From Kofleriaceae bacterium (GTDB lineage Bacteria; Myxococcota_A; Polyangia; Haliangiales; Haliangiaceae), in NCBI GenBank assembly GCA_046597055.1, contig JBKJLC010000261.1:1-23441 (forward strand): 23,441 nucleotides of DNA, written 5' to 3'. Made by a program: the position numbers and the translations under genes. The notes beneath the pieces are model-generated. The model saw only the letters and a program-made list of their open reading frames with translations. It searched no databases and was not told the DNA's origin. Shown in pieces: positions 3,270 through 23,441 of this stretch (position 1 is its first letter; the number at the start of each line of letters is the position of its first letter).

Positions 3270-4175
3270 ATGGTGCGTCTCCTCGAGGGTCGAGTCGCGA
3301 TCGTCACCGGCGCCGCGCGCGGGCTGGGCCGATGCCACGCGCTGGAGCTCGCGCGCCACGGCGCGCGCGTCGTCGTCAACGATCTGGGGGTCGAGCCGGA
3401 CGGGACCGGCGGCGCCAGCGGGCCGGCCGACCAGGTCGTCGCCGAGATCCGGACCAGCGGTGGCGAGGCGATCGCCAACGGCGACGACGTCGCCGACTGG
3501 GACGGCGCGCGTCGGATGATCGCGGCCGCGGTCGACACCTGGGGCCGGCTCGACGTGCTGGTCAACAACGCTGGCTTCCTGCGCGATCGCATGTTCGCCA
3601 ACGCCAGCGAGGACGAGTGGGACGCGGTCATGCGGGTCCACCTCAAGGGCCACTTCGCGCCGGCCCGGCACGCGGCCGGCCACTGGCGTGACGCCGCCAA
3701 GCGCGGCGAGCCGGTCGACGCGCGCATCATCAATACCACCTCGGGCGCCGGCCTCCAGGGCAGCATCGGCCAGGCCGCCTACGCCGCGGCCAAGGGCGGC
3801 ATCGCGGCGCTGACGCTGGTGCAGGCCGCCGAGCTCGGCCGCTACGGCGTGACCGCCAACGCGATCGCGCCGGCCGCGCGCACGCGCATGACCGAGACCG
3901 CGTTCGCCGCGGCGATGAAGGCGCCCGACACCGGCTTCGATGCGATGGCGCCCGACAACGTGTCGCCGCTGGTCGCCTGGCTGGCCAGCGCCGAGTCGCG
4001 CACGATCAGCGGCCGGGTGTTCGACGTCTCCGGCGGCACCATCGCCGTCGAGGACGGCTGGCGGCCGGGCCCGAAGGTCGAGCGCGACGCGCGCTGGGAC
4101 GCCCGCGAGCTCGGCGGCGTGGTGACCGAGTTGGTCGCGAGCGCGCCGGTGCCGGCCCCGGTCTGGGGGGCGTGA
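3270..4175 (+). CDS. Short-chain dehydrogenase/reductase, Rv3548c-like, 301 aa
   Basis: TGAARGLG Rossmann motif, NNAG and YAAAK catalytic motif. RDRMFAN..DEWDAVMRVHLKGHF and NAIAPAARTRMTE recall sterol-cluster SDRs. Confidence 0.88.
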   Translation: MVRLLEGRVAIVTGAARGLGRCHALELARHGARVVVNDLGVEPDGTGGASGPADQVVAEIRTSGGEAIANGDDVADWDGARRMIAAAVDTWGRLDVLVNNAGFLRDRMFANASEDEWDAVMRVHLKGHFAPARHAAGHWRDAAKRGEPVDARIINTTSGAGLQGSIGQAAYAAAKGGIAALTLVQAAELGRYGVTANAIAPAARTRMTETAFAAAMKAPDTGFDAMAPDNVSPLVAWLASAESRTISGRVFDVSGGTIAVEDGWRPGPKVERDARWDARELGGVVTELVASAPVPAPVWGA

Positions 4176-5599
4176 GCGTGCGCACCGCGGCGGCCTGCGC
4201 GCTGGCGCTCGCGGCCTGTGGTGGCGGCGAAGGCGACGCTGAGGGTCGCCTGCCCGAGGCGCGGCGCTGCGCGATCGACGCCCCACCTCCGGGCGCGCTG
4301 CACGCCGAGGGTACTCGCATCGTCGACGACGCCGGCCGCACGGTCACCCTGCGCGGGATCAACACCGGGGGCCGCGCCAAGTTCGCGCCGTACGCGCCGT
4401 TCGAGTACGCCGAGGGCGGCTACGACGCCGCGCTCGCCGCCTACCTCGATCGCGCGGCGAGCTGGGGCTTCGACGTCCTGCGGGTGCCGTTCTCGTGGCA
4501 CGCGCTGGAGCCGATCCGCGGCGAGGTCGACGAGGCCTACCTGGCCCGCTACGACGCGCTCCTCGACGGCGCGTGGGCGCGCGGGATGTGGACGATCGTC
4601 GACTTCCACCAGGACGTCTACGCCGAGCCGCTGTGTGGCGACGGCTTTCCGTCGTGGACGCTGGTCGATCCCCCGGCGCCGCGTCGCGACTGCCCCAACT
4701 GGGCGCACGGGTACGAGAACGACCCGCGCGTGCAGGCCGCGTTCGATGGGTTCTGGTCCGACGCGACCGGCGTGCAGACGGCGTTCCGCGCGATGTGGAC
4801 GCGCATGGTCGCGCGGCACCGGGCGCGCCCGGGCGTGATCGGCTACGAGCCGATCAACGAGCCGCATCCGGGCACCGGCGACCGCATCGCGTGGGAGGAG
4901 GGCCCGCTGACCACGTTCTACAGCGAGATGGCCGCGCTGATCAACGCAGGCGATCCGGGCGCGCTGGTGTTCGTCGACACCACCGGCTTCGAGGCCGTGA
5001 TCGGCCAGACCTCGCTGCGACGTCCGAGTGGTGACGGCATCGTGCTGGCGCCGCACTCGTACGATGCCGGGGCGCTGCTCGGCGGCGACCCTGACCCCGA
5101 CGTGCACGCGCGGCTGGCCAAGTGGGCTGCGCTCGGCGCGACGTGGGACGCGCCGGTGCTGATCGGCGAGATGGGCATGCCGGTCGACAACCCGCACGCC
5201 GCGATGCACGGGCGCCGGCACATGGATGCGCTCGATCAGCTCGGGATCGGCGCGACCTGGTGGGAGTACAGCGTGTCGTCCGAGCTGTGGAACCACGAGA
5301 ACTTCTCGATCGTCGCGGCCGACGGCACCGAGCTGCCGATCGTCGACGAGCTGGCGCGGCCGTACCCGCGCGCGCTGGCCGGCACGGCGCCGGTGGCGAG
5401 CTACCGGCCCGAGCCGGGTCGCTTCACGATCGAGTGGGCCCCGGCTGGCGACGCGCCGACCGAGCTGGCGGTGCCGACCCGCTGGGGTGCGGTCCGCATC
5501 GGCGCCGAGGGCGCGTGCGTCGCCGAGGCGGCCGGCACCGTGCGGGTCCAGGCCGACCCCGGTGCGACGCTCGTGCGCGTGTCGATCGAACGGAAGTGA
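4172..5599 (+). CDS. GH5 glycoside hydrolase lipoprotein, endoglycoceramidase-like, 475 aa
   Basis: Lipobox LAAC (Cys16). LRGIN, SWHALEP..G..DEAYL, DFHQDVY, GDGFP.W, INEP (acid/base), PHSY, IGEMG (nucleophile), RPYPRA. GTGA overlap with the SDR stop. Confidence 0.85.
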   Translation: MSVRTAAACALALAACGGGEGDAEGRLPEARRCAIDAPPPGALHAEGTRIVDDAGRTVTLRGINTGGRAKFAPYAPFEYAEGGYDAALAAYLDRAASWGFDVLRVPFSWHALEPIRGEVDEAYLARYDALLDGAWARGMWTIVDFHQDVYAEPLCGDGFPSWTLVDPPAPRRDCPNWAHGYENDPRVQAAFDGFWSDATGVQTAFRAMWTRMVARHRARPGVIGYEPINEPHPGTGDRIAWEEGPLTTFYSEMAALINAGDPGALVFVDTTGFEAVIGQTSLRRPSGDGIVLAPHSYDAGALLGGDPDPDVHARLAKWAALGATWDAPVLIGEMGMPVDNPHAAMHGRRHMDALDQLGIGATWWEYSVSSELWNHENFSIVAADGTELPIVDELARPYPRALAGTAPVASYRPEPGRFTIEWAPAGDAPTELAVPTRWGAVRIGAEGACVAEAAGTVRVQADPGATLVRVSIERK

Positions 5600-5729
5600 T
5601 CCGCAGCGGTCGCGTGCGCCGCGACGTGATCGGTGGCGAGCCCGGCCCCGCTTCATCGGCAGCCCCGGCGGAACCGTCACGTTCGCTTCGTGTCGACGGG
5701 CAGGCGGCAGGCCTCTGGATCCCACACAT

Positions 5730-5888
5730 CTTCCCGGTGGCCCTGCGCCAGGGCGAGCGCACGCGAGCCCGCCGTCGAAGGGCAGCCCGTCGAAGTTCAC
5801 GTGCGGCACCTTGGCGCGCTGCCCGCTGCTCGCTGCCCGCTGCCCTTCGACACGGCGCCTTCGGCGCCGGCTCAGGGACACCGGGAAG
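5730..5888. repeat. REP-like composite inverted-repeat element, copy 1
   Basis: Arms CTTCCCGGTG/CACCGGGAAG and GTCGAAGGGCAGC (5774-5786)/GCTGCCCTTCGAC (5839-5851). Shares 35 bp (1 mismatch) and 16 bp (exact) with 10759-10876. Confidence 0.8.
5818..5845 (+). repeat. Tandem heptamer GCTGC(C/T)C x4
   Basis: gctgccc gctgctc gctgccc gctgccc read directly. Confidence 0.75.
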
Positions 5889-5982
5889 GGGGGGAGCGCT
5901 TTCGATCACATGGAGACTTGTGGTCAATCCCGAGGGCAGCGCTCTGGATCCCGCCCATCTTCCCGGTGGCCGTGAGCCAGGG

Positions 5983-6150
5983 CGAGCCGAGGCGGGGGCA
6001 AGGTCCCAGAGCGCTCGTAAATTCCACGGCCGGGTGGTGAGCGCGTCGGCAAGCTGAGGCAATGGCACCGCCCAGCGAGACGCCCGGGGACCCCGGATCG
6101 AGCCAGCGACGGGACCTTGGCCTTGCCGACGGCGAGTCCGGCTGCGCGTG
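5983..6150. repeat. ~168-bp structured dispersed repeat, copy B
   Basis: ~84% identical to 15-183. Arms CAAGGTCCC (5999-6007)/GGGACCTTG (6111-6119). Confidence 0.85.
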
Positions 6151-8322: not shown

Positions 8323-9978
8323 CTACTTCTGCTCGCGGGCGGCGGCGTGGCGACCGGCCAGGTAGCCGAACGTCATCGCCGCGCCGATGGTGGCGCCGGC
8401 ACCCGGGTAGCCGGCGCCGGTCACGCCGGCCATGACGTTGCCGGCCGCGTACAGCCCGGCGATCGCGGTGCCGTCGGGGCGCAGCACGCGGGCGTCGCCG
8501 TCGGTACGGGCGCCGCCCTTGGTTCCGATCGCGCCGGGGTGGACCTGGATCGCGTAGAACGGCGCCTTCTCGACCGTGCCGAGGTTCGGGTTCGGCTTGT
8601 GGTCGGGGTCGCCGTAGAAGTGATCGTAGAGGCTCTCGCCGCGGCGGTAGTCGGGGTCGGCGCCCTCGACCGCGAACCGGTTGAACCGGGTCACGGTCGC
8701 GGTCAGGCCGCGCGGGTCGACGCCGATCATGGCCGCCAGCGCCTCGAGCGTGTCGGCCCGGGTCAGCCACTCGGGGATCGGCATGCCGGGCACGTACGTC
8801 ATCAGCGCGTACCGATCGAGGTACTGCTGATCGACGATGATCCAGGCCGGCAGGTTGCGGCGCTCGTAGGCGACCGGGTCGAAGGCGAAGAACGCCTTCA
8901 TCAGATCGTTGTAGTTGTGGGCCTCGTTGACGAACCGCTGGCCGGCGCGATTGACGATCACGCTGTGGGGTAGGGAGCGGGTCGCGAAGTCGCCGCGGTT
9001 GAGCGGGCGCTGGTCGTACTCCTCGCCAGGGATCTCGAGCGACGGGCACCACCACGCCTCGCTCATGTTGCCGAGGTCGGCGCCGAGCGACATCGCCATC
9101 TTCAGGCCGTCGCCCTCGAGCGACGGGGGGCTGTTGGGGTGGGTGAGCGGGCCACCCAGGAACCGGCGGCACAAGTCAGGGTTCCACTCGAAGCCGCCGC
9201 TGGCGAGGACCACGCCGCGCCGGGCGCTGATCAGGATCTCCTTGTCGCCCTGCCGGGCCCGGACGCCGACCACCCGATCGTCGTCGACCAGCAGCTCGTC
9301 GGCCGCCGCGCCCAGCATCGGCTCGATGCCGCGATCGAGCAGCGCCTTCAGCAGGCCGCCGGCGAGCGCGCCGCCGTAGCAGACCAGGCCCTGCTTGAAC
9401 CGCTTGCCGAGCAGGCTGAACGGCAGCGCCTGCGGCTTGGAGAACACGCCCCAGTCGGTCGCCTCGCTGACCGACATGGCGGTCATGCCGAACACCGGCG
9501 AGCGGCGCAGCTTGTCCTTCCAGGTCCCGAGCGTGTTGGTGTCGAACAGGCCGGGATCGAGCGAGCGGCCCCCGGAGCGGCCCCCGGCGAACTCCGGATG
9601 ATAGTCGGGGTAGCGGGCCAGCGCCTTGAAGGCGATCGGGGTGGCGCCCTCGACGAAGTCGAGCATCTCGGGCGCGGTCTCGAGGTAGCGGCGGATGAGC
9701 GCCGGCTCGCTGCGACCGTCGGCCAGCCGGGTGACGTACCCGATCGCCTCGTCGAGTGAGTCGGCGATGCCGAGCGCGGCCATGTGCTTGTTGCACGGCA
9801 CCCAGACCACGCCGCCGGACACGGCGGTGGTGCCTCCGAACTTGTCGGTCTTCTCGAGGACGGCGACCCGGGCCTTGCCGGCGTGGGCGGCGAGGGCGGC
9901 GACCGCCCCGGCGGCGCCACTGCCGATCACCACGACGTCGACCTCCAGGTTCCACTTGATCGACTTACGAAACCACAT
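8323..9978 (-). CDS. kstD: FAD-dependent 3-ketosteroid delta1-dehydrogenase-like protein, 551 aa
   Basis: DVVVIGSGAAG, GGTTAVSGGVVWVP, YPDYHP, GVVLASGGFE, RFVNEAHNY, GTKGG, GLYAAGN and YPGAGATIG. The three Tyr-containing motifs of KstD appear present; Delta1 versus related specificity is not proven. Confidence 0.78.
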   Translation of the reverse strand: MWFRKSIKWNLEVDVVVIGSGAAGAVAALAAHAGKARVAVLEKTDKFGGTTAVSGGVVWVPCNKHMAALGIADSLDEAIGYVTRLADGRSEPALIRRYLETAPEMLDFVEGATPIAFKALARYPDYHPEFAGGRSGGRSLDPGLFDTNTLGTWKDKLRRSPVFGMTAMSVSEATDWGVFSKPQALPFSLLGKRFKQGLVCYGGALAGGLLKALLDRGIEPMLGAAADELLVDDDRVVGVRARQGDKEILISARRGVVLASGGFEWNPDLCRRFLGGPLTHPNSPPSLEGDGLKMAMSLGADLGNMSEAWWCPSLEIPGEEYDQRPLNRGDFATRSLPHSVIVNRAGQRFVNEAHNYNDLMKAFFAFDPVAYERRNLPAWIIVDQQYLDRYALMTYVPGMPIPEWLTRADTLEALAAMIGVDPRGLTATVTRFNRFAVEGADPDYRRGESLYDHFYGDPDHKPNPNLGTVEKAPFYAIQVHPGAIGTKGGARTDGDARVLRPDGTAIAGLYAAGNVMAGVTGAGYPGAGATIGAAMTFGYLAGRHAAAREQK

Positions 9979-9993
9979 GGGTGTGAGCAGAAG

Positions 9994-10007
9994 TGAAACA
10001 TGTTCTA
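9994..10007. promoter_or_regulatory. KstR-type operator TGAAACATGTTCTA
   Basis: Exact TnnAACnnGTTnnA between the divergent kstD-like and tetR genes. Confidence 0.85.
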
Positions 10008-10029
10008 GTAGAGCCGCGCAAGCAGCATC

Positions 10030-10043
10030 GAGAACATGTTGCG
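10030..10043. promoter_or_regulatory. Degenerate operator GAGAACATGTTGCG
   Basis: AACATGTT core conserved, outer T/A lost. Confidence 0.6.
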
Positions 10044-10059
10044 TTCCTCACGTACGGGT

Positions 10060-10073
10060 GCGAACCTGTTCCG
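10060..10073. promoter_or_regulatory. Degenerate operator GCGAACCTGTTCCG
   Basis: GAAC-CT-GTTC core immediately before the likely tetR GTG start. Confidence 0.5.
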
Positions 10074-10075
10074 AA

Positions 10076-10735
10076 GTGAGCGCAGCGAGCAAGGAGAAGG
10101 ATCGCGGTATCTTCGACAGGATCTTCGACGTCGCGATCTCGCTCGCTGAAGAGGGCGGCTACGACAACGTCCGCCAGCGCGACGTGGCGGCCCGGGCCGG
10201 GGTCGCCCTGGGCACGCTGTACAAGCGCTTCCGCAGCAAGGAAGACATCCTGTCCGCCGCGCTCGAGCGCGAGACCGAGAAGCTCGAGCGCAAGATCGAG
10301 AAGGGCCCGGTCCAGGGCGGCTCGGTCGAGGATCGCCTGGTCGCGTTCTATACGATGCTGACCAAGGCGCTGTGCCGGCGGCCCCACTTCGCGCGCGCGG
10401 TGCTGCGCGCGATGGCGTCGGGCCAGCCCGAGGTCGCCAAGCACGTGGTCGCCTATCAGGGCCGGATGAACGGCCTGATCATCGCCGCGATGCGCGGGGT
10501 CGGCAGCCTCAGCTACGGGGACGCAGCGGTGACCCCGCCCACCGAGCGCGAGCAGACGCTGGCGTTGCTGCTGCAGCAGATCTGGTTCGCGTCGCTGATC
10601 GGCTGGTCGGCCGGGCTGCACAGCCAGCCCGCGGTGCTCGAGCATGTCCGCACCGCCGCCCGGCTGTTCCTGCGGTCGCTCGATCTCGAGGCCAAAGAGC
10701 AGAAGCCGGCCAAGTCCGTCGCGACCGCGCGCTGA
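10076..10735 (+). CDS. kstR: TetR-family regulator, KstR-like, ~219 aa (start uncertain)
   Basis: HTH GGYDNVRQRDVAARAGVALGTLYKRFRSK recalls KstR GGYEAVQMRAVADRADVAVGTLYRYFPSK. C-terminal PTE.EQ..A....IW...L..W pattern is also KstR-like. Cognate operators adjacent. Confidence 0.8.
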   Translation: MSAASKEKDRGIFDRIFDVAISLAEEGGYDNVRQRDVAARAGVALGTLYKRFRSKEDILSAALERETEKLERKIEKGPVQGGSVEDRLVAFYTMLTKALCRRPHFARAVLRAMASGQPEVAKHVVAYQGRMNGLIIAAMRGVGSLSYGDAAVTPPTEREQTLALLLQQIWFASLIGWSAGLHSQPAVLEHVRTAARLFLRSLDLEAKEQKPAKSVATAR

Positions 10736-10758
10736 GCCGGTCGAGCCGGACACTCACC

Positions 10759-10876
10759 CCCGTTCGTCCTGAGCCCGAGCGAGCGCACGCGAGCTCGGTG
10801 TCGAAGGACGGCCTTCACACCGTCGGACACCCGCCCTTCGACACGGCGCCTGCGGCGCCGGCTCAGGGCGAACGGG
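10759..10876. repeat. REP-like composite inverted-repeat element, copy 2
   Basis: CCCGTTCGTCCTGAGCC/GGCTCAGGGCGAACGGG and GTGTCGAAGG/CCTTCGACAC arms with internal hairpins; directly downstream of the tetR stop. Confidence 0.82.
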
Positions 10877-10951
10877 AGGGCCGGTTTCACGCGTGCGAGC
10901 TGTTTCGATCGACAAGCGAGCCGGCACCGAAATCTTGCTTGCTGGCTGGAA

Positions 10952-10965
10952 TGGAACATGTTCTA
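10952..10965. promoter_or_regulatory. KstR-type operator TGGAACATGTTCTA
   Basis: Exact reverse complement of 3127-3140. Palindrome extends to GAAT.GAACATGTTC.ATTC. Upstream of the Mce/Mla operon. Confidence 0.85.
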
Positions 10966-11103
10966 TTCAGCCTCGACCGCAGTCGCGCATCGGTGCGCGG
11001 CCGCCCGGCCGTGCTCGACGAGCCGGCCTCGGTGCGCGGCCCTGCCACGCAGGCAACCGTCAGGTCGCGAGCCGGGACTACACGCCAGCATGTCGAGCGG
11101 CGC

Positions 11104-11117
11104 TAGAACATGTATCA
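11104..11117. promoter_or_regulatory. Near-consensus operator TAGAACATGTATCA
   Basis: One mismatch to TnnAACnnGTTnnA, 57 bp before the ATPase start. Confidence 0.65.
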
Positions 11118-11174
11118 CTCGCGCCCGGCCCCACCCGCTGGGTGCGCCGATGCCGTGGCGCCACCTGGTGAGCG

Positions 11175-11876
11175 ATGCCCGCTGACGATCGCGGCTGGGC
11201 GGTCGAGCTGGTCGAGGTCGACAAGCGCTTCGGCGCCCGCCGCGTGCTCGGCGACGTCACCCTGCGGGTCGCCCGCGGCGGCCGGCTCGGCATCATCGGC
11301 CCGGCCGCGGCCGGCAAGAGCGTGCTGCTCAAGCTGGTGGCCGGGCTGCTGCGCCCCGACGGCGGCAGGGTCCACGTCAGCGGTCGCATCGGCATGCTGT
11401 TCCAGAACAGCGCGCTGTTCGACTTCCTCACCGTCGCCGAGAACGTGGCGTTCCCCCTGGTGCAGGCGGGCGGCGTCGCCGACGACGAGATCGCGGCGCG
11501 GGTCGCGGCCCGGCTCAAGGCGGTCGGCCTGGCTGGCTCCGAGCGCAAGGTGCCCTCGGAGCTGTCGGGTGGCATGAAGAAGCGGGTCGGCCTGGCCCGC
11601 GCCACCGTCGCCCGGCCCGAGGTCGTCCTCTACGACGAGCCGACCGCCGGGCTCGACCCGGTCACGACCGCCAAGGTCTATCAGCTCCTGCGCGACGATC
11701 ACGATGCCGGCGGTGGCACCGCGATCGTGGTGTCGTCGGACGTCGAGGCCGTGGCCGGGTTCGCCGACACCATCGCGTTCGTCGACGACGGCCGGGTCCG
11801 CTGGGTCGGGCCCGCGGTCAGCCTGCTCGACGCCGACGACCCGCAGGTGCGCGCGTTCGCGCGGGGGACCGCATGA
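11175..11876 (+). CDS. ABC ATPase, MlaF/MceG-like (1), 233 aa
   Basis: [43 protein letters not shown]. Confidence 0.9.
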
Positions 11877-12649
11877 ACCTGCGCGGCTCGGTCGCCGCGC
11901 TCGGCGGGCGCACCATGGGCGCGGCCCGCGACGCCGGCGGCATCGTCGTGCTCGCGTACGAGGTCGGGCGCTCGCTGGTGCCGCCGCGGCTCGACGGCCG
12001 CGAGCTGATCCGCAACCTCTACAAGATGGGCTTCAAGTCGGTGCCCATCGTGGTCATGACCGCGCTGTTCGTGGGCGCGCTGATGGTGATCCAGTTCGCC
12101 GCGTTCGTGAAGCAGTACGGCGCCACCGGCATGATCGGCTGGGGCACCGGCTACGCGGTGCTGCGCGAGGTCGGCCCGCTCCTGATCGGCCTGATGTTCT
12201 CGGGTCGGGTCGGCGCCAACAACGCCGCTGAGCTGGGCACGATGACGGTCACCGATCAGATCGACGGCCTGCAGGCGCTGGCGATCGATCCGATCCGCTA
12301 CCTGATCGTGCCGCGGGTGCTGGCGATGATGATCACGCTGGTGGTCATGACGATGATCGGCGACGCGGTCGCGATCTGCGGCGTGATGCTGGCGTCGCAC
12401 GCGCTGCTCGACATCCACCCGTACACGGTCTGGTACGGGCTGGTCGACAACCTCGGCGCCGGCGACTTCCTGCACGGCATGGCCAAGGCGCTCGTGTTCG
12501 GCGCCGCGATCGCGCTGTCGTCTTGCTACTACGGCCTGACCGTCCAGGGCGGCGCGGTCGGGGTCGGTCGCGCGGTCAACTCGGCGGTGGTGAGCGCCGC
12601 GGTGTCGATCTGCTTCCTCGACTTCCTCATGACGTACCTCACCAACTGA
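11873..12649 (+). CDS. MlaE/YrbE-family permease (1), 258 aa
   Basis: [58 protein letters not shown] overlap. Confidence 0.92.
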
Positions 12650-12654
12650 GCCCC

Positions 12655-13464
12655 ATGTCTGCCCTCCGTCGCACCGTCACCTCCGTCGGCGCCAGCACCC
12701 TGGCCACCGTCGCGGCGGCCACCGAGCTGGCCTCGGTCGCGGCCCAGACCGTGGCGGGCGCGGTGTTCGGCTACTGGCGTGGCAAGCGGCCGCGTGGCGC
12801 GATCGCGCGCCAGCTCTACCTCATCGGCAACCGCTCGCTGCCGTTCGTGCTGGTCACGCTCGGGTTCGTCGGGATGGTGATGGTCTACCAGACCTGCCTC
12901 CTCACCACCCGGATCGTCGACGGCCGCAACCAGGTCGGCCAGCAGTGGGCCCGCCTGCTGGTGCTCGACGTCGGACCCAGCCTGACCGCGATGATGCTGG
13001 CGACCCGGGTCGGCGCCGGCATCGCCGCCGAGATCGGGTCGATGAAGGTGACCGAGCAGCTCGACGCCCTGCAGATGTCGGGGGTGACGCCGATCCGCTA
13101 CCTGATCGTCCCGCGCTTCTTCGCCTGCGTGATCATGACGGTGGTCCTGACCATGTTCGGCATGGCCGCGTCGTGGGCGGCCGGCGGGGTGACCGGCTAC
13201 TACTCGTTCCAGATCAACCCGCGCATCTTCTTCGACCTGGCGATGGTGAAGCCGGCCCACGTCGCGGTGTGCCTGGTGAAGGCGCTCGCGTTCGGCGCGG
13301 CGATCCCGATCGTGAGCGGCTTCTGCGGCCTGCGCGCGCGCGGCAGCTCGGAGGGCGTGGGCGGCGCCGCCACCGCGGCGGTGATCGGCTCGAGCTTCGC
13401 GGTGCTGGTGCTCGACGTCCTGATCTCGTGGGGGGCGCTGGTCCTGTTCGGAGCCGGGATGTGA
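12655..13464 (+). CDS. MlaE/YrbE-family permease (2), 269 aa
   Basis: [48 protein letters not shown]. Confidence 0.92.
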   Translation: MSALRRTVTSVGASTLATVAAATELASVAAQTVAGAVFGYWRGKRPRGAIARQLYLIGNRSLPFVLVTLGFVGMVMVYQTCLLTTRIVDGRNQVGQQWARLLVLDVGPSLTAMMLATRVGAGIAAEIGSMKVTEQLDALQMSGVTPIRYLIVPRFFACVIMTVVLTMFGMAASWAAGGVTGYYSFQINPRIFFDLAMVKPAHVAVCLVKALAFGAAIPIVSGFCGLRARGSSEGVGGAATAAVIGSSFAVLVLDVLISWGALVLFGAGM

Positions 13465-14213
13465 TCGAGCTCCGCGGCGTACACAAGGCGTTCGGGGGCC
13501 GGCCGGTGCTGGCCGGGGTCGATCTGATGGTCGGCCGCGGCGAGGTGGTGTGCGTGGTCGGCACCTCCGGCGTCGGCAAGTCGGTGACGATCAAGCACCT
13601 GGTCGGCTTCCTGCGGGTCGACGCCGGCGAGATCTGGTTCGACGGTCGCCGCATCGACGACCTGCCCGACCGCGAGTTCGCCGCGATCCGGCGCCGGATC
13701 GCGATGGTGTTCCAGAGCTCGACCCTGTTCGACGCGATGACCCTGGCCGAGAACGTCGCGCTGCCGCTGCGCAAGCACCGCCGCATGCGGGCGGGCGCCG
13801 CGCTGGTCGAGGCCCGGCGCCGGCTCGAGGAGGTCCACCTCGCCGAGCTCGGCGACCGATACCCGGCCGAGGTGTCCGATGGCGTGCGCAAGCGGGCCGC
13901 GATCGCGCGGGCGCTGACGATCGAGCCCGAGGTCGTGCTGTTCGACGAGCCGACCACCGGCCTCGACCCGACCAGCGCGCGCCGGATCGACCGCCTGATC
14001 CGCGAGCTCGCCGATCGCCGCGGCGTCACCGCGATCGTGGTGTCGCACGATCTCACCTCGATCTTCGCGATCGCCGATCGGATCGCGCTGCTCTACCGCG
14101 GCGTGGTCCACGCCTGCGGCACCCCCGGCGAGATCCGCGCCTCGGCGGACCCGGTCGTCCTCCAGTTCATCCATGGCCGCGCCGCCGGGCCCATGGAAAC
14201 CCCCGGCTTCTAG
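13461..14213 (+). CDS. ABC ATPase, MlaF/MceG-like (2), 250 aa
   Basis: GTG overlapping the upstream stop. GTSGVGKS, MVFQSSTLFD, VSDGVRKRAAIARAL, LFDEPTTGLDP, VSHD. Confidence 0.9.
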   Translation: MIELRGVHKAFGGRPVLAGVDLMVGRGEVVCVVGTSGVGKSVTIKHLVGFLRVDAGEIWFDGRRIDDLPDREFAAIRRRIAMVFQSSTLFDAMTLAENVALPLRKHRRMRAGAALVEARRRLEEVHLAELGDRYPAEVSDGVRKRAAIARALTIEPEVVLFDEPTTGLDPTSARRIDRLIRELADRRGVTAIVVSHDLTSIFAIADRIALLYRGVVHACGTPGEIRASADPVVLQFIHGRAAGPMETPGF

Positions 14214-14221
14214 GAGCTCCC

Positions 14222-15238
14222 ATGCGTGACGACGGCGTCGAGTACAAGGTCGGGTTGCTGATGGTGACGGCGGTGGCGCTGTTCGCCGTGTTCATCTTCG
14301 TGCTCGGGCGGTTCTCGCTCAGCAGCGGGTTCACGCTGTACGCGGACTACGAGTACAGCGGCAACGTCCAGACCGGGGCGCCGGTGAAGGTCTCGGGCAT
14401 CACGGTCGGCCGGGTCGAGGCGGTCGAGTTCCGCGGCGGCCAGCTCGATCCGGCGACCGGCCGGCGGGTCCAGGTCCGGGTCGAGCTGTGGATCGAGGAC
14501 CGCGCCCGCGACTCGATCCGCGGCGACGCCGAGTTCTTCGTCAACACCGCCGGTGTGCTCGGCGAGCAGTACGTCGAGATCGTGCCGGGCCGGAACTGGG
14601 AGGCGCCGCCGCTGGCGGCGGGCTCGATCATCGTCGGGGTCACCCCGCCGCGCACCGACCTGGTGGTCGCGCGGCTGTACGAGCTGCTCGACATCATGAC
14701 CGCGGTGATGCGCAAGGATCGCGACAAGATCGCGGCGATCATCACCAACGCGGCGCACGCGGTCGACCAGGTTGACGGGATCCTGGTCGAGAACCGGCCC
14801 AAGGTCGGCGGCCTGATCGACGCGGTCACCGGGCTCGCGCTCGAGAGCCAGCAGGTGCTGGCCAAGGTCGACGATGGCCTCGATAGCCGCCAGATCGCGG
14901 CGACCCTGCGCCACGCCGACGGCCTGCTGGTCACCGCCGACAAGACGCTGGCCGAGGCCGGTCCGGCGACCGGCGCGCTGATGCGCGAGGGCGTGCGGGT
15001 GCTCGAGCTCGCCACCGAGGCGCGGGTCGAGCGAACCCTGGTCGCGGTCGATCGCGCGGCCGGCGCCGCCGACCAGGCCGGGACGCTCATGCGCAACGCC
15101 AACGGCGCGCTCACCGACGTCCGGGCCGGCAAGGGCTCGATCGGCGCGTTGCTCACGCGGCTCGACGTCTACGCCGACGTCCGCGAGATGGTGCGCGACC
15201 TGCGGCGTAACCCGTGGAAGCTGATCTGGAAGGAGTGA
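14222..15238 (+). CDS. MCE/MlaD-domain protein with helical extension (1), 338 aa
   Basis: N-terminal TM (KVGLLMV...), GAPVKVSGITVGRV, TAGVLGEQYVEIVPG. AGGAG Shine-Dalgarno. Confidence 0.9.
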   Translation: MRDDGVEYKVGLLMVTAVALFAVFIFVLGRFSLSSGFTLYADYEYSGNVQTGAPVKVSGITVGRVEAVEFRGGQLDPATGRRVQVRVELWIEDRARDSIRGDAEFFVNTAGVLGEQYVEIVPGRNWEAPPLAAGSIIVGVTPPRTDLVVARLYELLDIMTAVMRKDRDKIAAIITNAAHAVDQVDGILVENRPKVGGLIDAVTGLALESQQVLAKVDDGLDSRQIAATLRHADGLLVTADKTLAEAGPATGALMREGVRVLELATEARVERTLVAVDRAAGAADQAGTLMRNANGALTDVRAGKGSIGALLTRLDVYADVREMVRDLRRNPWKLIWKE

Positions 15239-15242
15239 CCGG

Positions 15243-16259
15243 GTGGCGCTCAAGATCCACGACGAGCGGCTGACCCGTCGGGTCGGCGCGGCCGTGCTGG
15301 TGGGGGCCGCGCTGACCGTGCTCTTCGTGGCGATCATCTTGCCGCGGCTGGTCCGCGACGGCGTGACCGTGCGGGTCCGGTTCGGCGCGGTGGTCGGCCT
15401 GACCGAGGGCGCCGCGGTCCAGCTGGCCGGGCGCGACATTGGCCGGGTCCGCTCGATCGTGATCGCACCGGCCCACGGCGGCGTCGTCGTCGAGCTCGCG
15501 ATCGACCGCGAGTGGGCGGCGCGGGTGCCGGTCAACTCGGACTTCTTCGTCGACGCCCGCGGGATGCTGGGCCCGCGCTACCTCGCGATCGGCCCGCCGC
15601 GGGCGGGGGCGGCGCCCGCGCGCGGCCTGGTCGACAACGACCAGGTCACCGGGGTCGATCCGCCCAACCTCGACAACGTGCTCCAGCGCGCCTATGACAG
15701 CCTCGAGGAGGTCGCGCGCTTCGTCGAGGCGATCGCGCCGGCCGCGGCCCTGATCGAGGCGGCGTCGGCTCGACTCGGCACCACCATCCGCGGGCTCGAC
15801 CCGCGCCCGGGCGCGTCGGACGAGCTGGCGCGGACGGTCCGCGAGGTGACGCACACCGCCGACACCCTGATCACCGACCTGCGCGGCGGACGGATCGATC
15901 CGGCGGCGCTGGCCCGGCTGGTGGCCGGCATCGAGGCGCTGGCTGCGCGCGTGGATGGGGTGGCGACCGAGCTGCGCGGCCAGGTCGCGGTGGTGCAGGC
16001 CGCCGTCGACCGGGTCGGAGCGGCGCTGCCGGCCCCGCTGCGCGCGCGGGTCGAGCGGGTGATGGTGGGCGTCGACAGTGGGCTGGCACAGGCGCAGCAG
16101 CTGGCCGGGCAGATGCGCGGCGTGATCGCGGACGCCACCACCGGGGTCGGTACGATCGCGGCGTTCGGGGCCGACCTGGAGCTGGTCGACAACGTGCGGG
16201 AGCTGACGAAGGACCTGAAGCGCAAGCCGTGGCGCCTGGCCGTGCCGCCGCCGCAGTGA
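15243..16259 (+). CDS. MCE/MlaD-domain protein with helical extension (2), 338 aa
   Basis: N-terminal TM, GLTEGAAVQLAGRDIGRV, GMLGPRYLAIGP. Confidence 0.88.
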   Translation: MALKIHDERLTRRVGAAVLVGAALTVLFVAIILPRLVRDGVTVRVRFGAVVGLTEGAAVQLAGRDIGRVRSIVIAPAHGGVVVELAIDREWAARVPVNSDFFVDARGMLGPRYLAIGPPRAGAAPARGLVDNDQVTGVDPPNLDNVLQRAYDSLEEVARFVEAIAPAAALIEAASARLGTTIRGLDPRPGASDELARTVREVTHTADTLITDLRGGRIDPAALARLVAGIEALAARVDGVATELRGQVAVVQAAVDRVGAALPAPLRARVERVMVGVDSGLAQAQQLAGQMRGVIADATTGVGTIAAFGADLELVDNVRELTKDLKRKPWRLAVPPPQ

Positions 16260-16315
16260 CTCCCGCTCGGCTCTTTCCCGACAAGCGCAGAACGGCTCTG
16301 GCGTATAGATCGGCA

Positions 16316-18694
16316 ATGGTCCGTACCCTCCTGGCTGGCGCTGTCGGCGTTGCCACCCTGCTCCTCGTCGGTGCGCCGTCCGCCGGCGCGGCCCCGCCGC
16401 AGCCCGGCGGTCCCCATCCGCGCCTGTTCCTCGACACCGCGACGCTCGACGCCCTGAAGGTGGCGGCCGGCCGGCCGGACAGCGCGGTCGCGCGCGCGGT
16501 CACGCGCTGCAACCGCATCCGCGCCAACCCGGGCAACTTCACCACCGGGGGCATGGGGCTCGACTTCGGCGCCAACATGAGCGCCTGCGCGCTCGCGTGG
16601 AAGGTCACGGCCGACCCGGTCTACGCCACCGAGGCGGTCCGCTTCTTTCGCGCGCTCCTGAATGACTACCAGGCGATCGGCGACGGTGCGGGCGGCGACG
16701 ACGTCGTCCGCCACGACACCGGCTATGCGATGCGCGGCTTCGCGCCGTATGCCGCGATCGCTTACGACTGGCTGCGCGAAGCGCCCGGGGTCGACGCCGA
16801 CCTGCTGGCCCTGGCCCGCCGCCGCTTCAAGGCGTGGACCGACTGGTACGACGCCGACGGCTATCACAACGATCAGCCCGGCGCGAACTACCACGCCGGC
16901 TACATCTTCGGCGCGACCATGATCGCGATCGCGCAGGGCAACGAGGCCGGCGCCGAGGGCGCCGAGCTGTGGACCCACGTGGTCGACGACCTGTTCGGGC
17001 GCGACATGGCCGCGGCGCTCGCCGACGGCGGCACGCTCGACGGTGGCGACTGGCTCGAGGGCTGGCAGTACGGCAACCTCAGCGTGCTCGAGTACGCGGC
17101 GTCGGCCCGCGCGCTGCGCGATCAAGGGGTCACCCTCGAAGGGTACGCGGCGTGGGAGGGTGAGCTGGTCGCGCGCGCGATCTACGCGAGCCCGCCGGCC
17201 AGCGGCCAGATGTTCATCGGCGGCGATGCCGACATCGAGACGCCGTACCGCGAGCTGTCGGCGATGAACCTGTACGCCGCGCTGATCGACGTCGGGCCCG
17301 CCGAGGCGCGCGGCTGGGCGCAGCACCTGATCGAGACCTACGATCTGCAGGAGACGACGTTCCTGCTGCTGGCCGCGCTGGCCGAGGTGCGGGCGACCGC
17401 GCCGACGCCGTTCCCGACCGACGTGTCGACCCTGCTGTTCGCGCCCGGCTCGCACACCGTGTACGCGCGGTCGGGCTGGGGCGCGAATCAGGTCTGGATG
17501 GTCACCCGCTGCTTGCCGGGCAACGCGATCTCCGACCACCTGTTCTTCGACGCCGGCAACCTGGTGCTGTCGCGCGGGCCCGATCACCTGATCGTCGACC
17601 CGAGCCCGTACGGCTCGATGTCGTCGCTCACCGGCAACGCGCCGACCTTGTCGAGCAACACCCTGCTCGAGCAGTACCGACCCGGCCAGGGCCCGTGGGG
17701 CAGCCCCGCGAACGTCGGCTTCGCGTGGCGCCGCCAGTCGCGCTCGGGGGTGGTCGCGACCCGCTGCGAGTACAGCGGCCAGTTCAAGTTCCGGTCGGAC
17801 GACGAGCGGGCGCCCGACGTGACCCGCGCGGTCCGCGACCTCGTGCTGGTGCCGACCAGCGCCGGCACCGACGCCACCCTGGTCGTGATCGACTACGCGG
17901 CCGGCGGCAACGGCCCCCTGCTGCTGCGGTACCGGACCCAGGCGGCGCTCGCCGCGAGCGGCAGCCGGGCCGCCGGCACCCTCGGCGCCAGCCGCCTGAC
18001 CATCCAGGCCGCCGCCGGGCCGGCCGGCACCGTGCGGGACCTGCCGCAGGGGGATTGCTTCGAGGGCCAGACCCGCGGCAACTGCGACGTCGCCCGGTTC
18101 GCCGGCGACGAGTGGCGGACCAGCGTGGCGGGCACGACCAAGCGGGCGATCACGGTGATCGACGCGGCCAGCGGCGATGCGCCCGCCGCGCTCGTCACCG
18201 CCGGCACCGGCTTCGAGGTGGTGGGGACCGAGCGCGGCGGCCACTGGATCGCGGTGGTGACCGCGACCACGCCGTCGGCCGGCACCGCGGTGGCCGCCCC
18301 GCTCACCTACCGGACCCGGGCCGGCGTCGTGGCCACCCACGTCGTGGTCGATGCGCCGCGCGGCGATGGCGGGCGCAGCGACGTCACCGCGCGCATGGTC
18401 GGCGACGAGTGCGAGGTGACGGTCATGCCCCGCGCCGGCGCCACCGGTGGCTTCGACGGCCGGCCGCTGATGCTGGCGGTGTCGGCCACCTGCGCGGTCG
18501 CCGAGGATCCCGACCTCGGTCCGTTCGAGCCGCCTAGCCCGCCCGATCCCGGCCCCGGCACCGGGTGGGAGGGTGCCGAGGTCGAGGGCGGCTGCTGCGA
18601 CGCGGGTGGCGCGCCCCTGCCGGCGCTGGTGCTGGTCCTGGTGCTCGCGCCGCTGGTGGGTCGGCGCGCCGGTCGCCGCGCCGAGCGCCGCTGA
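16316..18694 (+). CDS. Secreted protein, heparinase II/III / alginate-lyase-like fold, MYXO-CTERM-like tail, 792 aa
   Basis: Signal peptide; HPRLFL, AIAYDWL, NYHAG, GGDWLEGWQYG, ARSGW and H..FDAGNL recall lyase toroid plus beta-sandwich proteins. Pro-rich linker, then GGCCDAGG-hydrophobic-RRAGRR. Substrate unknown. Confidence 0.65.
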   Translation: MVRTLLAGAVGVATLLLVGAPSAGAAPPQPGGPHPRLFLDTATLDALKVAAGRPDSAVARAVTRCNRIRANPGNFTTGGMGLDFGANMSACALAWKVTADPVYATEAVRFFRALLNDYQAIGDGAGGDDVVRHDTGYAMRGFAPYAAIAYDWLREAPGVDADLLALARRRFKAWTDWYDADGYHNDQPGANYHAGYIFGATMIAIAQGNEAGAEGAELWTHVVDDLFGRDMAAALADGGTLDGGDWLEGWQYGNLSVLEYAASARALRDQGVTLEGYAAWEGELVARAIYASPPASGQMFIGGDADIETPYRELSAMNLYAALIDVGPAEARGWAQHLIETYDLQETTFLLLAALAEVRATAPTPFPTDVSTLLFAPGSHTVYARSGWGANQVWMVTRCLPGNAISDHLFFDAGNLVLSRGPDHLIVDPSPYGSMSSLTGNAPTLSSNTLLEQYRPGQGPWGSPANVGFAWRRQSRSGVVATRCEYSGQFKFRSDDERAPDVTRAVRDLVLVPTSAGTDATLVVIDYAAGGNGPLLLRYRTQAALAASGSRAAGTLGASRLTIQAAAGPAGTVRDLPQGDCFEGQTRGNCDVARFAGDEWRTSVAGTTKRAITVIDAASGDAPAALVTAGTGFEVVGTERGGHWIAVVTATTPSAGTAVAAPLTYRTRAGVVATHVVVDAPRGDGGRSDVTARMVGDECEVTVMPRAGATGGFDGRPLMLAVSATCAVAEDPDLGPFEPPSPPDPGPGTGWEGAEVEGGCCDAGGAPLPALVLVLVLAPLVGRRAGRRAERR

Positions 18695-18720
18695 CCGCGG
18701 TGACCGGGCCCGCGGTCAGC
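18690..18720. terminator. Hairpin between convergent genes
   Basis: Perfect 11-bp arms GCTGACCGCGG/CCGCGGTCAGC with a 9-nt loop, containing both stop codons. No U-tract. Confidence 0.55.
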
Positions 18721-21700
18721 GCGGCGTGCGCGGCGACCCGCCGGGCTCGATGACGGCGGTGGTGTGCGCGTCGAGCCACGGGCCCAGCGGCTGGGCTGGC
18801 GTCGGCCCGGACCACGCGCCGGCCAGCTCCCACACCCGCACGGTGTGATCGTCGCCGCCCGAGAGCAGGCGCGCACCGTCGGGCGCGAACGCCAGCTCGG
18901 TCACGATCCCGGCGTGGCCGTGCAGGCGCGCGCACGCGCCACTGGCCAGCCGGCACACGCGGATCACCCCGTTCGGGCCGGCGGTCGCCACCTGCTCGTC
19001 ATCGGGCGAGAGGGCCAGCGCGTGGACGTCCTCGATCGGGCCCGGCACCGCGCGCCGCGGGCCGCCGCCGAGATCGTGGAGGTGGATCGTGCCGGCGAAG
19101 TCCACGAACAGCAGGTGGCGACCATCGGCGGTGAAGCGCGGCTTGTGGGTGCCGGTGACCGGTGACGCGAGCGCGCGCGGCTGGCCGGTCGCCGCGTCCC
19201 ACAGCCACACCTGATCGGTGTCCCCGGTCGCGGCGATCCACCGGCCGTCGGGCGAGACCGCGACCCCGCTCGGCTCGCCGGGTCCGCCGGCGAGCACCAG
19301 GCCACCGCCGCGCGCGAGATCCCACACCCGCGCGGTCCCGTCCTTCCCGACGCTGGCCAGGCGGCGGCCGTCGGGAAAGAACGCCAGGCCGAGCAGGGAC
19401 CCGGTGTGGCCCCCCACGTGGACGTCGGCGCCGGTCCGGACATCGCGGACGTGGATCTGCCAGTCGTAGGTCGCGTAGGCGACGTGGTGCTGGTCGGGCG
19501 ACACCAGCGGTAGCCAGCTGCCGCCGGCCGGTCCCGGCACCGGCGCGGCCTTGCCCGCGAGATCCCACAGCGTCAGCTGGGCGTCGACGCTGCTCGACAC
19601 CACCCGGTCGCCGGCGAAGCCGAGGCTGAGCACCCAGCCGTCGTGGTGCCCGAGGACCCGGGGCGGGCCGCCGCCAGCATCCCAGCGCAGGACCGCGCGA
19701 TCGCGGGCGCCGCTGACGACGTGGTGACCGTCGGGCGTCCACGCCACCGCGGTCACCGGCGCCTCGTGACCGCGCAGCACGCGCACGCGCGTCGGCAAGC
19801 GCTGCCACACGCGCACCTGGTCGCCGCCGGCGGCCGCGACCCGACCGTCGTCGGCGACCGCCAAGAGGTTCAGCTCGCGCCCGTCGCTGGCGAGCACCGC
19901 CTCCTCGACGCCGTGGTCGTCCCACAGCCGCACGGTGCCGTCCTCCGAGGCGCTCACCAGCCGACCGTCGGGCGCATACGCGAGCGCACGCACGGTGTCG
20001 CCGTGGCCGCGCAGGATGACGGCGGCGGCGGCGGGGTCGGTCCAGCGCCGCACGGTTCGATCGCCGCTGGCGGTCGCGAGGCCGGCGCCGCCCGGCGCGA
20101 TCGCGACATCGGGGATCCAGTCGTCGTGGACGCCGAGCACGCCGCTGGTTCCGGTCGCGAGGTCCCACCGGCGCACGGTCCGGTCCTCGCTGACGGTGAC
20201 CGCGCTGCCGTCGGCCAGGAAGCGGATCCGGTGCACCTCCTTGACGTGGCCGACCAGCTCGCGACTGGCGCCGGTGACGAGCGAATGAGCGTGAAGGCCG
20301 CCGTCCGACGCACCGGACAGGAGCCAGCGCCCGTCGCCGCTGAAGGCCAGGCTCGACGCCCGCCAGCCGTGCTGCGTGATCGTGCGCGCCGTCGGGGCGC
20401 CCGCGCGCAGGTCCCACAGGCGCACCATGCCGCTCACCGCGCCGGTGGCCAGCCACCGGCCGTCGGTCGACAGGGCCAGGCTCATGAGCGCGGTGTCGCC
20501 GGTGTGGATCGTCCACGCGGCCCCGGTCGCCAGGTCGCGGAGCCGCACGTCGCCGGTGCCGTCATGGCTGGCGATGCGGCGGCCGTGGTCCCCGAACGTC
20601 GCGAATCGAGCCGGGGCGTCGCGGCCGAGTTCGCGTCCACGGCCGGTGTCGACGTCCCACATCACCACCGCGCCGTCGCGGCTGATCGTGACCAGCTGGG
20701 GGCCGTCGCCGACGAACGCCAGTCCGATCGCGGTCCCGGACAGCGCGAGCACGTGCCGGGCCACGCCGCGCCCGAGCGCGTCCTCGGCGACGTCGCGGGC
20801 CGGGCCGGCCGGGGCGGGTCCGTCGCCGGCCGCGTAGCGACGGAGCCAGGCCATCGCGGCGGTTGGATCGGTGCCGACCACGCCCTGCGCCTGCAGCAGG
20901 ATCAGCTCGCGCTCGCGACCTCGCAGCGCGCCGGCGGTGACCTGGAGCCGGTCGCGCGACCCGATCACGCGCTGGACGCTGACCGTGCCGGTCACCGCCA
21001 GCGCCGCCAGCAAGATCGCGCCGACAGTGACCGCCGCGCGGTGGCGACGCAGCCAGCGGGCGAGCAGCGCCGACCAGGAATAGCGGTGGGCCCCGACCAG
21101 CCCGCCGTCGGTGAAGCGGCGCAGGTCGTCGGCCATCGCGCGCGCGGTCGGGTAGCGCGCGGCCGGGTCGCGGCTCATGGCCTGGTCGACGATCGCGGCG
21201 AGATCGCGGGGCACACCGACCAGCGCGCGCGCGGGCGTCGGCGGCCCCGCCAGCACGTCGGCGAGCACGCGCTGGGTATCGGTGCCGGCATACGGCGGCC
21301 GACCGGCGAGCACGTGGTAGAGCAGCGCCCCCAGCGCGTACACGTCGGCGCGCTCGTCGACCGGCCGGCCGGCCGCCTGCTCGGGCGGCATGTACGCCGG
21401 GGTGCCCACCACCGCGCCATGCGCGGTCAGCTTCGCCGCGTGCGCGCCGGTGCCGGTGACCACGCCGGGGTCGTCGTCGGGCTCGTCGAGGCTCTTGGCC
21501 AGGCCCCAGTCGATCACGATCGTCTCACCGAACTCGCCGAGCAGCACGTTGAGCGGCTTGAGGTCGCGGTGGATGATGCGCTGGCCGTGGGCGTAGGCCA
21601 GGGCGTCGACGATCGCGAGCAGGCGTGGCACCAGCGCGAGCCGCTGGCCGGGCGCGGTCGCCGCGATCGCCGCGTCGAGCGACCGGCCGGCCACCAGCTT

Positions 21701-22014
21701 CATGCAGTAGAACGGCTCGCCGCTGTCCAGCGTGCCCAGGTCGTAGACCGGCACGATCGCGGGGTGCTGGAGGCGCGCGGTGATGCGCGCCTCGCGGGCG
21801 AAGCGGGCGCGCTGGTGCGGGTCGAGCGCGATCAGCTCCTTGACCGCGACCGGCCGGGTCAGCCGCGCGTCGTAGGCGCGCCGGACCCGGCCCATGCTGC
21901 CGCGCGCGACCTCGTCGCCGAGGAAGTAGCGATCGTCACCTGCGGTCGGCGCCGCCAGATCGGGCCCGCCGAGCTCGGGTCCAGCGTCGTCGATGGTGAC
22001 GTTGTGCGGCCGCA

Positions 22015-22015
<1 letters not shown>
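18716..22015 (-). CDS. Ser/Thr protein kinase with WD40 repeats, ~1099 aa
   Basis: [37 protein letters not shown]; hydrophobic segment; many GH...D.TVR.WD repeats. TGATG overlap with the upstream gene. Confidence 0.92.
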
Positions 22016-23355
<1,340 letters not shown>

Positions 23356-23400
23356 CTGCCAGACACTACCGCAGCCGATCGCGGCCGGTGCCGGCACACG

Positions 23401-23417
23401 CCGGCACGACCCTGGCA
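23401..23417 (+). promoter_or_regulatory. Putative sigma54 -24/-12 promoter
   Basis: CCGGCACGACCCTGGCA has GG-N10-GC spacing and is close to YTGGCACGRNNNTTGCW. Target gene lies outside the window. Confidence 0.45.
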
Positions 23418-23441
23418 CGACCGCGCCGCACCTCGGTTCAC

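Follow-up and report, generated by a model that had tools for sequence, protein, structure and literature searches.

The 23,441-nucleotide stretch of Kofleriaceae bacterium DNA analysed here, from an uncultured myxobacterium of soil (GenBank assembly GCA_046597055.1, contig JBKJLC010000261.1, hereafter the window) carries six intact genes on the plus strand, in the order F1-E1-E2-F2-D1-D2 and spanning 11175-16259. Sequence comparisons show this operon to be a duplicate of a lineage-wide, six-subunit MCE-type ATP-binding cassette (ABC) transporter, one that probably moves sterols out of the envelope and into the cytoplasm under predicted KstR-like control. An earlier note on the window had also read it as a candidate sterol importer, and the comparative data strongly favour that reading through operators specific to the duplicate, co-occurrence with the steroid marker KshA, an operon-mate barrel in relatives and independent recruitments of the same kind of transporter, whereas the doubled layout proved to be no mark of sterol transport, and the shared C-terminal tails a mark of neither sterol transport nor a heteromer. 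The genes of the operon are as follows; below, G000 is the genome of the window, other G numbers are relatives, and L numbers are loci.

11175-11876, plus strand: F1, MlaF-like ATPase (ABC_tran) by family-profile match, with MlaF the best NCBIfam match, below cut-off
11873-12649, plus strand: E1, MlaE/YrbE-type permease (PF02405, 227.6 bits)
12655-13464, plus strand: E2, second MlaE/YrbE-type permease (PF02405, 184.9 bits)
13461-14213, plus strand: F2, MlaF-like ATPase (ABC_tran), with MlaF the best NCBIfam match, below cut-off
14222-15238, plus strand: D1, with a transmembrane helix, a single MCE domain (MlaD, PF02470), about 190 residues of amphipathic helices and a PW tail
15243-16259, plus strand: D2, of D1-like layout with a single MlaD domain (PF02470), 27% identical to D1

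The order and tight coupling of ATPase, permease, permease, ATPase, MCE and MCE genes reported in the earlier note were confirmed, the genes overlapping by 4 bases at two junctions and standing 5, 8 and 4 bases apart at the other three. With an MlaE permease, an Mkl/MlaF ATPase and a membrane-anchored MCE domain sharing one operon, the system falls among the MCE-type ABC lipid transporters in the broad sense. E1 and E2 were 33-36% identical to each other and both above the PF02405 cut-off. D1 and D2 were both 338 amino acids long and do end, after long helical extensions, in similar PW-type tails (VREMVRDLRRNPWKL in D1 and VRELTKDLKRKPWRL in D2), as had been claimed. Compared with two relatives, each of the six genes had a ratio of nonsynonymous to synonymous substitution rates (dN/dS) below 1, dS being compressed by a third-position GC content near 0.97, and D2 was the fastest evolving of the six subunits.

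The regulatory elements upstream of the operon are:

10028-10735, plus strand: KstR-like TetR repressor, the likely regulator; start codon approximate; best NCBIfam match KstR (NF033703)
10952-10965: operator-like site 1, TGGAACATGTTCTA, an exact fit to the KstR motif TnnAACnnGTTnnA
11104-11117: operator-like site 2, TAGAACATGTATCA, one mismatch to TnnAACnnGTTnnA; matrix score 22.1

The motif TnnAACnnGTTnnA is that of KstR in the available text of PMC1995591, and both sites that the earlier note placed upstream of the operon are present, ending 209 (10952) and 57 (11104) bases before the start of F1. Across the genome the strict pattern TRRAACAYGTTYYA matched 16 times forward and 15 times in reverse, its 17 places being spread over 7 of the 303 contigs, while the reversed-pattern control had none in either direction. 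The weight matrix was built from the genome's own sites, with 10952 inside the training set and 11104 outside it; the score of the latter was reached by 7 of 5000 random 400-base windows. At a loose matrix threshold of 14 there were 49 real matches versus 0-77 in a column-permuted control, which was not clean. The four best named PDB matches of the repressor were all mycobacterial KstR (E about 2e-19), far above other TetR proteins, its closest relatives carry the labels Kofleriaceae or Myxococcales, assigning the genome to Myxococcota, and its gene has an operator-like site of its own at 9994. As expected of a KstR regulon, TnnAACnnGTTnnA sites precede steroid genes as well as the repressor gene itself, and 10952 and 11104 are likely the operators predicted for this repressor. 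The junction between operators and F1 is not an assembly artefact, since it is spanned by public contigs: one from the likely source run covers 10840-13017 with no differences, and two runs of a second study cover 10949-11298.

By gene content, the regulon marked by these sites is one of steroid catabolism, as the same site precedes or flanks CYP125-like, HsaA, EchA19, FadD19-like, FadD3 and KshA-type genes. In the window, FadD3 scored above its cut-off (734.6 versus 657) and a KstD-like protein scored 497 (cut-off 789). On the other operator contigs, where 90 open reading frames (ORFs) were called and 64 scanned, we found HsaA (412.6, cut-off 450), EchA19 (394, cut-off 400), a PRK07798 acyl-CoA synthetase above cut-off, which we take to be FadD19-like, two strong KshA_C matches and, directly behind a tandem site, a P450 whose best matches were CYP125 entries (E 8.6e-164). 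The sterol is likely to be external, because no oxidosqualene cyclase was found in the genome (94% complete) or in 8 of the 9 other steroid-positive members of the family. The steroid cluster on C48 (L075 11314-13948 and L076 2-6945) also includes F420 biosynthesis genes and an F420-dependent LLM oxidoreductase. At 4172-5599 (plus strand) the steroid cluster of the window includes a GH5 lipoprotein closest to endoglycoceramidases (E 1e-28) and weakly similar to the sterylglucosidase SglA (E 2e-10); it is present in G035, is not found in several other relatives, and could act in the release of sterols from plant steryl glycosides.

The genome contains a second six-gene set, with F1-E1-E2-F2 at the end of C140 (L232 8546-11690) and D1-D2 on C53 (L083 708-2760). 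Identity between the two copies was 57-70% for F1, E1, E2, F2 and D1 (64% for E1, 61% for E2) and 36% for D2. Because an E2 match was found in 122 of the 135 genomes of the order, we regard the six-gene architecture as housekeeping; the double-MlaE, double-MCE and double-ATPase layout is no hallmark of sterol transport, being shared by the housekeeping copy of G000 and by most of the order. No description of such a housekeeping system with an asymmetric ATPase pair was found in the literature examined. In several genomes the housekeeping D1-D2 pair forms a separate convergent unit.

The duplicate, in contrast, tracks steroid genes. Using KshA_C as an independent steroid marker across the same 135 genomes, we found two E2 copies in 13 of the 16 KshA-positive genomes, one copy in two (G038 and G041) and none in G042, versus one copy in 107 of the 119 KshA-negative genomes (the unpublished G085 and G086 counted among them), none in 12 and two in none. 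Twelve of the 13 two-copy genomes carry the clade of the window (74-100% identity to E2) across three genera; these twelve are kin, and therefore do not count as twelve independent events. In a tree of E1, E2 and D1 (27 rows) the 11 clade operons were monophyletic (100/100) and nested among the housekeeping copies of the family, and the D1 tree points to a duplication that is old and was followed by several losses. G014 falls among the steroid-positive genomes yet is without KshA, the repressor and the duplicate; it retains an orphaned lipoprotein-barrel pair that has no site. The operators followed the duplicate as well. Within 400 bases upstream of the first gene, all 13 clade operons had an operator scoring 28.6-29.1, a score of 25 being reached by 5 of 5000 random windows, while over the same distance 24 housekeeping starts, 16 of them in KshA-positive genomes, reached at most 6.1 (14 F1 starts) and -4.6 (10 D1 starts), one further F1 start being too short to score. 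The relatives make this a fair test because the matrix was derived from the sites of G000. Comparison of relatives with and without steroid genes, which had been proposed as a check, hence came out in favour of the steroid link (13/16 versus 0/119, with sites on the duplicate only), and the caveat that the operon might be a lineage-wide lipid-homeostasis system lying merely adjacent holds in its first half, for the architecture, while mere adjacency is largely excluded for the copy in the window.

Alignment of the repressor revealed 80 KstR-like loci, 12 of which have the operon or its start beside the repressor. Eleven of these 12 read repressor, divergent gene, site, lipoprotein, outer-membrane protein, transporter. 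Two of the outer-membrane proteins were compared with PF03349 (FadL/TodX), and one, from G009, passed at 35 bits, while that of G035 scored 21; a barrel profile of 22 rows matched only FadL-type PDB entries. The lipoprotein belongs to no Pfam family and was predicted with a confident fold (pLDDT 90.8), for which there was no Foldseek match at E 0.001 and the best VIA Z was 8.5, to small beta-barrels, a common arrangement. The divergent gene that shares the operator in relatives (L045 8364-9062, minus strand) is lipoprotein-like and has no Pfam match; it may carry a PA14-like motif. The KstR-like genes at L071 (G021) and L072 (G011) belong to genomes with one operator match and no KshA, and are possible remnants of a lost regulon.

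The linkage to a barrel bears on what such a transporter would be for. A steroid-regulated duplicate might instead protect the envelope, clearing sterol or misplaced phospholipid from the outer membrane in the manner of an inducible Mla and feeding catabolism little. Its parent is, after all, a near-universal housekeeping system, five of the subunits (F1, E1, E2, F2 and D1) keep the high identity to the housekeeping copy given above, and two genomes keep the duplicate without the entry barrel. Co-transcription with a FadL-like barrel in 11 of the 12 loci suits uptake better, however, and an extra need for clearance could be met by regulating the existing housekeeping copy, which has no operator; we therefore consider envelope protection unlikely. 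Somewhat less likely again is an importer for other lipids such as fatty acids or ceramides, switched on by sterols that signal the presence of eukaryotic prey or debris. The PDB matches of the barrel are by name fatty-acid channels, the endoglycoceramidase-like GH5 lies in the same cluster, and KstR regulons include general lipid genes in the portions of PMC1995591 available, but steroid-specific enzymes dominate the regulon, and none of the seven other FadL-family matches above cut-off in G000 lies on the seven contigs with exact operator sites.

Import of sterols by a recruited MCE transporter is suggested further by events outside the clade. In G044, from another family, two sites are followed by E1-E2-D1-D2 without ATPases, between kstD genes and kstR-kshA, and a separate housekeeping operon is retained. 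Forcing G044 into the clade of the window was rejected with three genes (p-AU 8.9e-7, or 2.6e-5 under a mixture model with the long outgroup left out), the group tested having been chosen after the single-gene trees had been viewed. The three-gene test indicates an independent recruitment in the family of G044. The main operon of G038, F1-E1-F2-D1-D2, has no E2; the sole E2 of that genome stands behind a site, next to cyp125-kshA-hsaA and the lipoprotein-barrel pair, and G041 is split likewise, on a truncated contig. At L133 and L142 two sites precede a small gene read as SCP2-like and then a lone E2, and in G001, inside the clade, both ATPase genes are missing at their junctions. It is quite possible, and we suggest it tentatively, that myxobacteria repeatedly made a heteromeric housekeeping MCE transporter into a sterol importer, by operon duplication, by duplication without the ATPases or by moving one permease under KstR-type control, and that with the FadL-like barrel and barrel lipoprotein this would form a complete Gram-negative, envelope-spanning uptake path converging on mycobacterial Mce4.

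These arrangements also speak to whether the duplicate is simply carried along on the margin of a steroid island as a passenger, with the upstream site serving a neighbouring gene. The site does lie between the divergent gene and the operon in most relatives, and in the window the operon is the last unit of the island. In G000 and G003, however, there is no divergent gene and the site is still just upstream of F1, and G044, the pair G038 and G041, and the loci L133 and L142 separately place homologs behind the same site, making a passenger most improbable.

Several observations weigh against a sterol importer under KstR-type control. The repressor scored 109 bits against KstR NF033703, far below the cut-off of 280. 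Among KshA-positive genomes, G042 (80% complete) had no E2 match and G051 had no operator at F1. The clade lies on the margin of a steroid island passed down by inheritance; its 12 genomes are therefore kin, and co-loss may be block loss. The grouping of G044 was not separated on D1 alone (p 0.115). No such operon was found within 10 kb in 68 of the 80 KstR-like loci, some on short contigs; among these 68, the barrel occurs in four, accompanied in two of them by a lipoprotein match, and a lone E2-like gene occurs in three. A convergent pocket signature in the independently recruited E2 proteins was sought and not found: the changes specific to the clade, at E2 positions 72-106, are unshared, and at most of the 8 clade-specific columns all five independently recruited E2 proteins keep housekeeping-type residues. 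In the monomer model of D1, a transmembrane helix and an MCE barrel are followed by helices at 145-337, with pLDDT below 50 over most of 183-320. Finally, G000 and G003 lack the divergent gene, the lipoprotein and the barrel. G000 does have an operator-led surface cassette on C70 (L077 361-5285), made up of a small barrel-like protein, a 338-residue lipoprotein and a 1035-residue repeat lipoprotein. The cassette lipoprotein was present in 5 of 61 genomes, all KshA-positive, and because both barrel-less genomes are among them the cassette may replace the missing lipoprotein and barrel there.

The subunits themselves were compared with the canonical motifs of ABC ATPases. F1 has a canonical LSGGM signature, but its H-loop carries Ser instead of His, a replacement seen in all homologs (27 of 27). 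F2 has intact Walker A, Walker B and H-loop motifs and a degenerate VSDGV signature, the third residue of which is Asp in every homolog (31 of 31). A homodimer of either would be impaired at both sites, whereas F1 with F2 would form one complete and one degenerate site, and a heteromeric complex is therefore favoured. These complementary defects are the best evidence pointing to a single heteromeric complex, and they are the same in the housekeeping copies. As an argument for a heteromer, or for sterol specificity, the PW tail was rejected; since housekeeping D1 and D2 have it too, it reflects paralogy, and the argument of the earlier note from similar tails to a heteromeric tunnel falls with it. 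The best Foldseek match of D1 was to Mce1 (chain 8fed_F, E 6.3e-12), a match driven by the MCE domain, because the helices are of low confidence. The extensions of D1 and D2 were more amphipathic than shuffled sequences (1.16 and 1.24 versus 0.87 and 0.85), as a hydrophobic needle would need.

If the sterol-importer reading is correct, a steroid catabolite would release the KstR-like repressor from 10952 and 11104, and sterol would enter the outer membrane, where relatives would use the FadL-like barrel and G000 some other route. It would then descend a hydrophobic helical needle and the MCE ring of D1 and D2 to the E1/E2 permease heterodimer, with release at the inner membrane driven by an F1/F2 heterodimer of one working and one degenerate ATP site, and would there be degraded by CYP125, KstD, KshA and HsaA-type enzymes. 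The opposite direction, export of toxic steroid intermediates, has some basis in that transport direction is not readable from sequence and that heterodimeric ABC systems in which one site is degenerate occur commonly among exporters. Its operon partner is an uptake-type barrel, however, and characterised Mla and Mce systems carry lipid inward according to the available text of PMC10665443 and PMC13492129, and we give export very little weight.

Between the repressor gene and the operators lies one further element:

10759-10876: REP-like hairpin repeat, with nested inverted repeats and 160 blastn matches on 95 contigs

A related copy was seen near 5600-6000. The repeat was unbridged at 10784-10840 among the contigs listed, and synteny in relatives supports the join. 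No remnants of lost lipoprotein or barrel genes were found in 10731-11180, where matches to other loci were confined to the repeat and the operator, and a scan of 9900-16500, uninformative for this lineage, gave no sigma-70 promoter. Downstream, the ORF at 16301-18694 (plus strand) was rejected as a seventh operon gene, being absent behind D2 in four relatives; it encodes a secreted protein of about 790 residues with a GlyGly-Cys-Cys sorting-like tail and no Pfam, NCBIfam or PDB match. At 18716-23418 (minus strand) is a pair made up of a kinase-WD40 protein and an FHA-sigma54 activator, unrelated to the transporter.

The closest parallel is mycobacterial and rhodococcal Mce4 (YrbE4AB, Mce4A-F and MceG; structural model Mce1, PDB 8FED). 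Like Mce4, the system has a pair of distinct MlaE-type permeases, MCE subunits that differ from one another and carry long helical extensions, predicted control of the KstR type and a setting among steroid genes; the mce4 operon belongs to the KstR regulon of M. smegmatis in the available text of PMC1995591, and as in mycobacterial mce operons the steroid-linked copies of G044 and G001 lack ATPase genes. Unlike Mce4, there are two MCE genes rather than six in G000 and in all complete clade operons, a FadL-like partner in relatives, no match to Mce4_CUP1 (DUF3407, PF11887) in D1, D2 or the genome, and, instead of a shared, usually unlinked MceG homodimer, two linked and different ATPases with complementary motif loss. 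Because the duplicate arose from a myxobacterial housekeeping operon, the resemblance is best read as convergent, and the duplicate is not a member of Mce4. The families are also those of MlaFEDB-MlaC-MlaA of E. coli in Pfam, but here every subunit is doubled and diverged, the D proteins are 338 residues long versus a short MlaD, there is no MlaB or MlaC gene in the operon, and all subunits fall below the MlaE, MlaF and MlaD equivalog cut-offs; MlaA was not found in the genome, and the sole MlaC is unlinked to the operon. As described in the accessible parts of PMC12436622 and PMC10665443, Brucella Mpc and Veillonella MlaEFD likewise join an MlaEF-type ABC core to a single MCE domain and a long helical extension that is predicted to bridge the periplasm, but they have one MlaD-type gene and a role in phospholipid homeostasis, whereas the duplicate has catabolic regulation. 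It differs from elongated-MlaD bridges in having no C-terminal barrel and no linked PqiC-like gene; the only PF03886 match in the genome adjoins another MCE locus on C145.

Parts of this picture have precedents. As early as 2007, mce-like operons of Gram-negatives were described as containing permease or ATPase genes in duplicate (PMC1810536, as far as its available text goes), and the text available of PMC13492129 sets homohexameric Gram-negative MCE systems against heterohexameric mycobacterial ones. A FadL-family barrel has been proposed as the outer-membrane entry of cholesterol in Sterolibacterium denitrificans, with no inner-membrane MCE partner named in the available portions of the review (PMC6678751), whereas the relatives studied here share an operon of barrel and MCE transporter. 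Steroid uptake outside mycolic-acid bacteria is called unidentified or poorly understood in the excerpts available of PMC4810484, PMC6678751 and PMC7264893, and an MCE role in Gram-negatives 'cannot be excluded' according to one review, likewise available in part. In the full-text literature searched, with subscription papers and supplements outside its scope, we found no description of an MCE sterol importer in Myxococcota, and the available text of PMC5561183, PMC5790920, PMC11713862 and a 2026 preprint has nothing on the system described here.

The locus supplies concrete candidate genes for the poorly understood step of steroid uptake in Gram-negative bacteria, and the matched housekeeping paralog in the same genome offers an internal comparison for working out what determines sterol specificity. 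Its two MCE subunits, in place of six, would make the system a simpler model of Mce4-like transport. These data further suggest that soil myxobacteria take part in sterol turnover.

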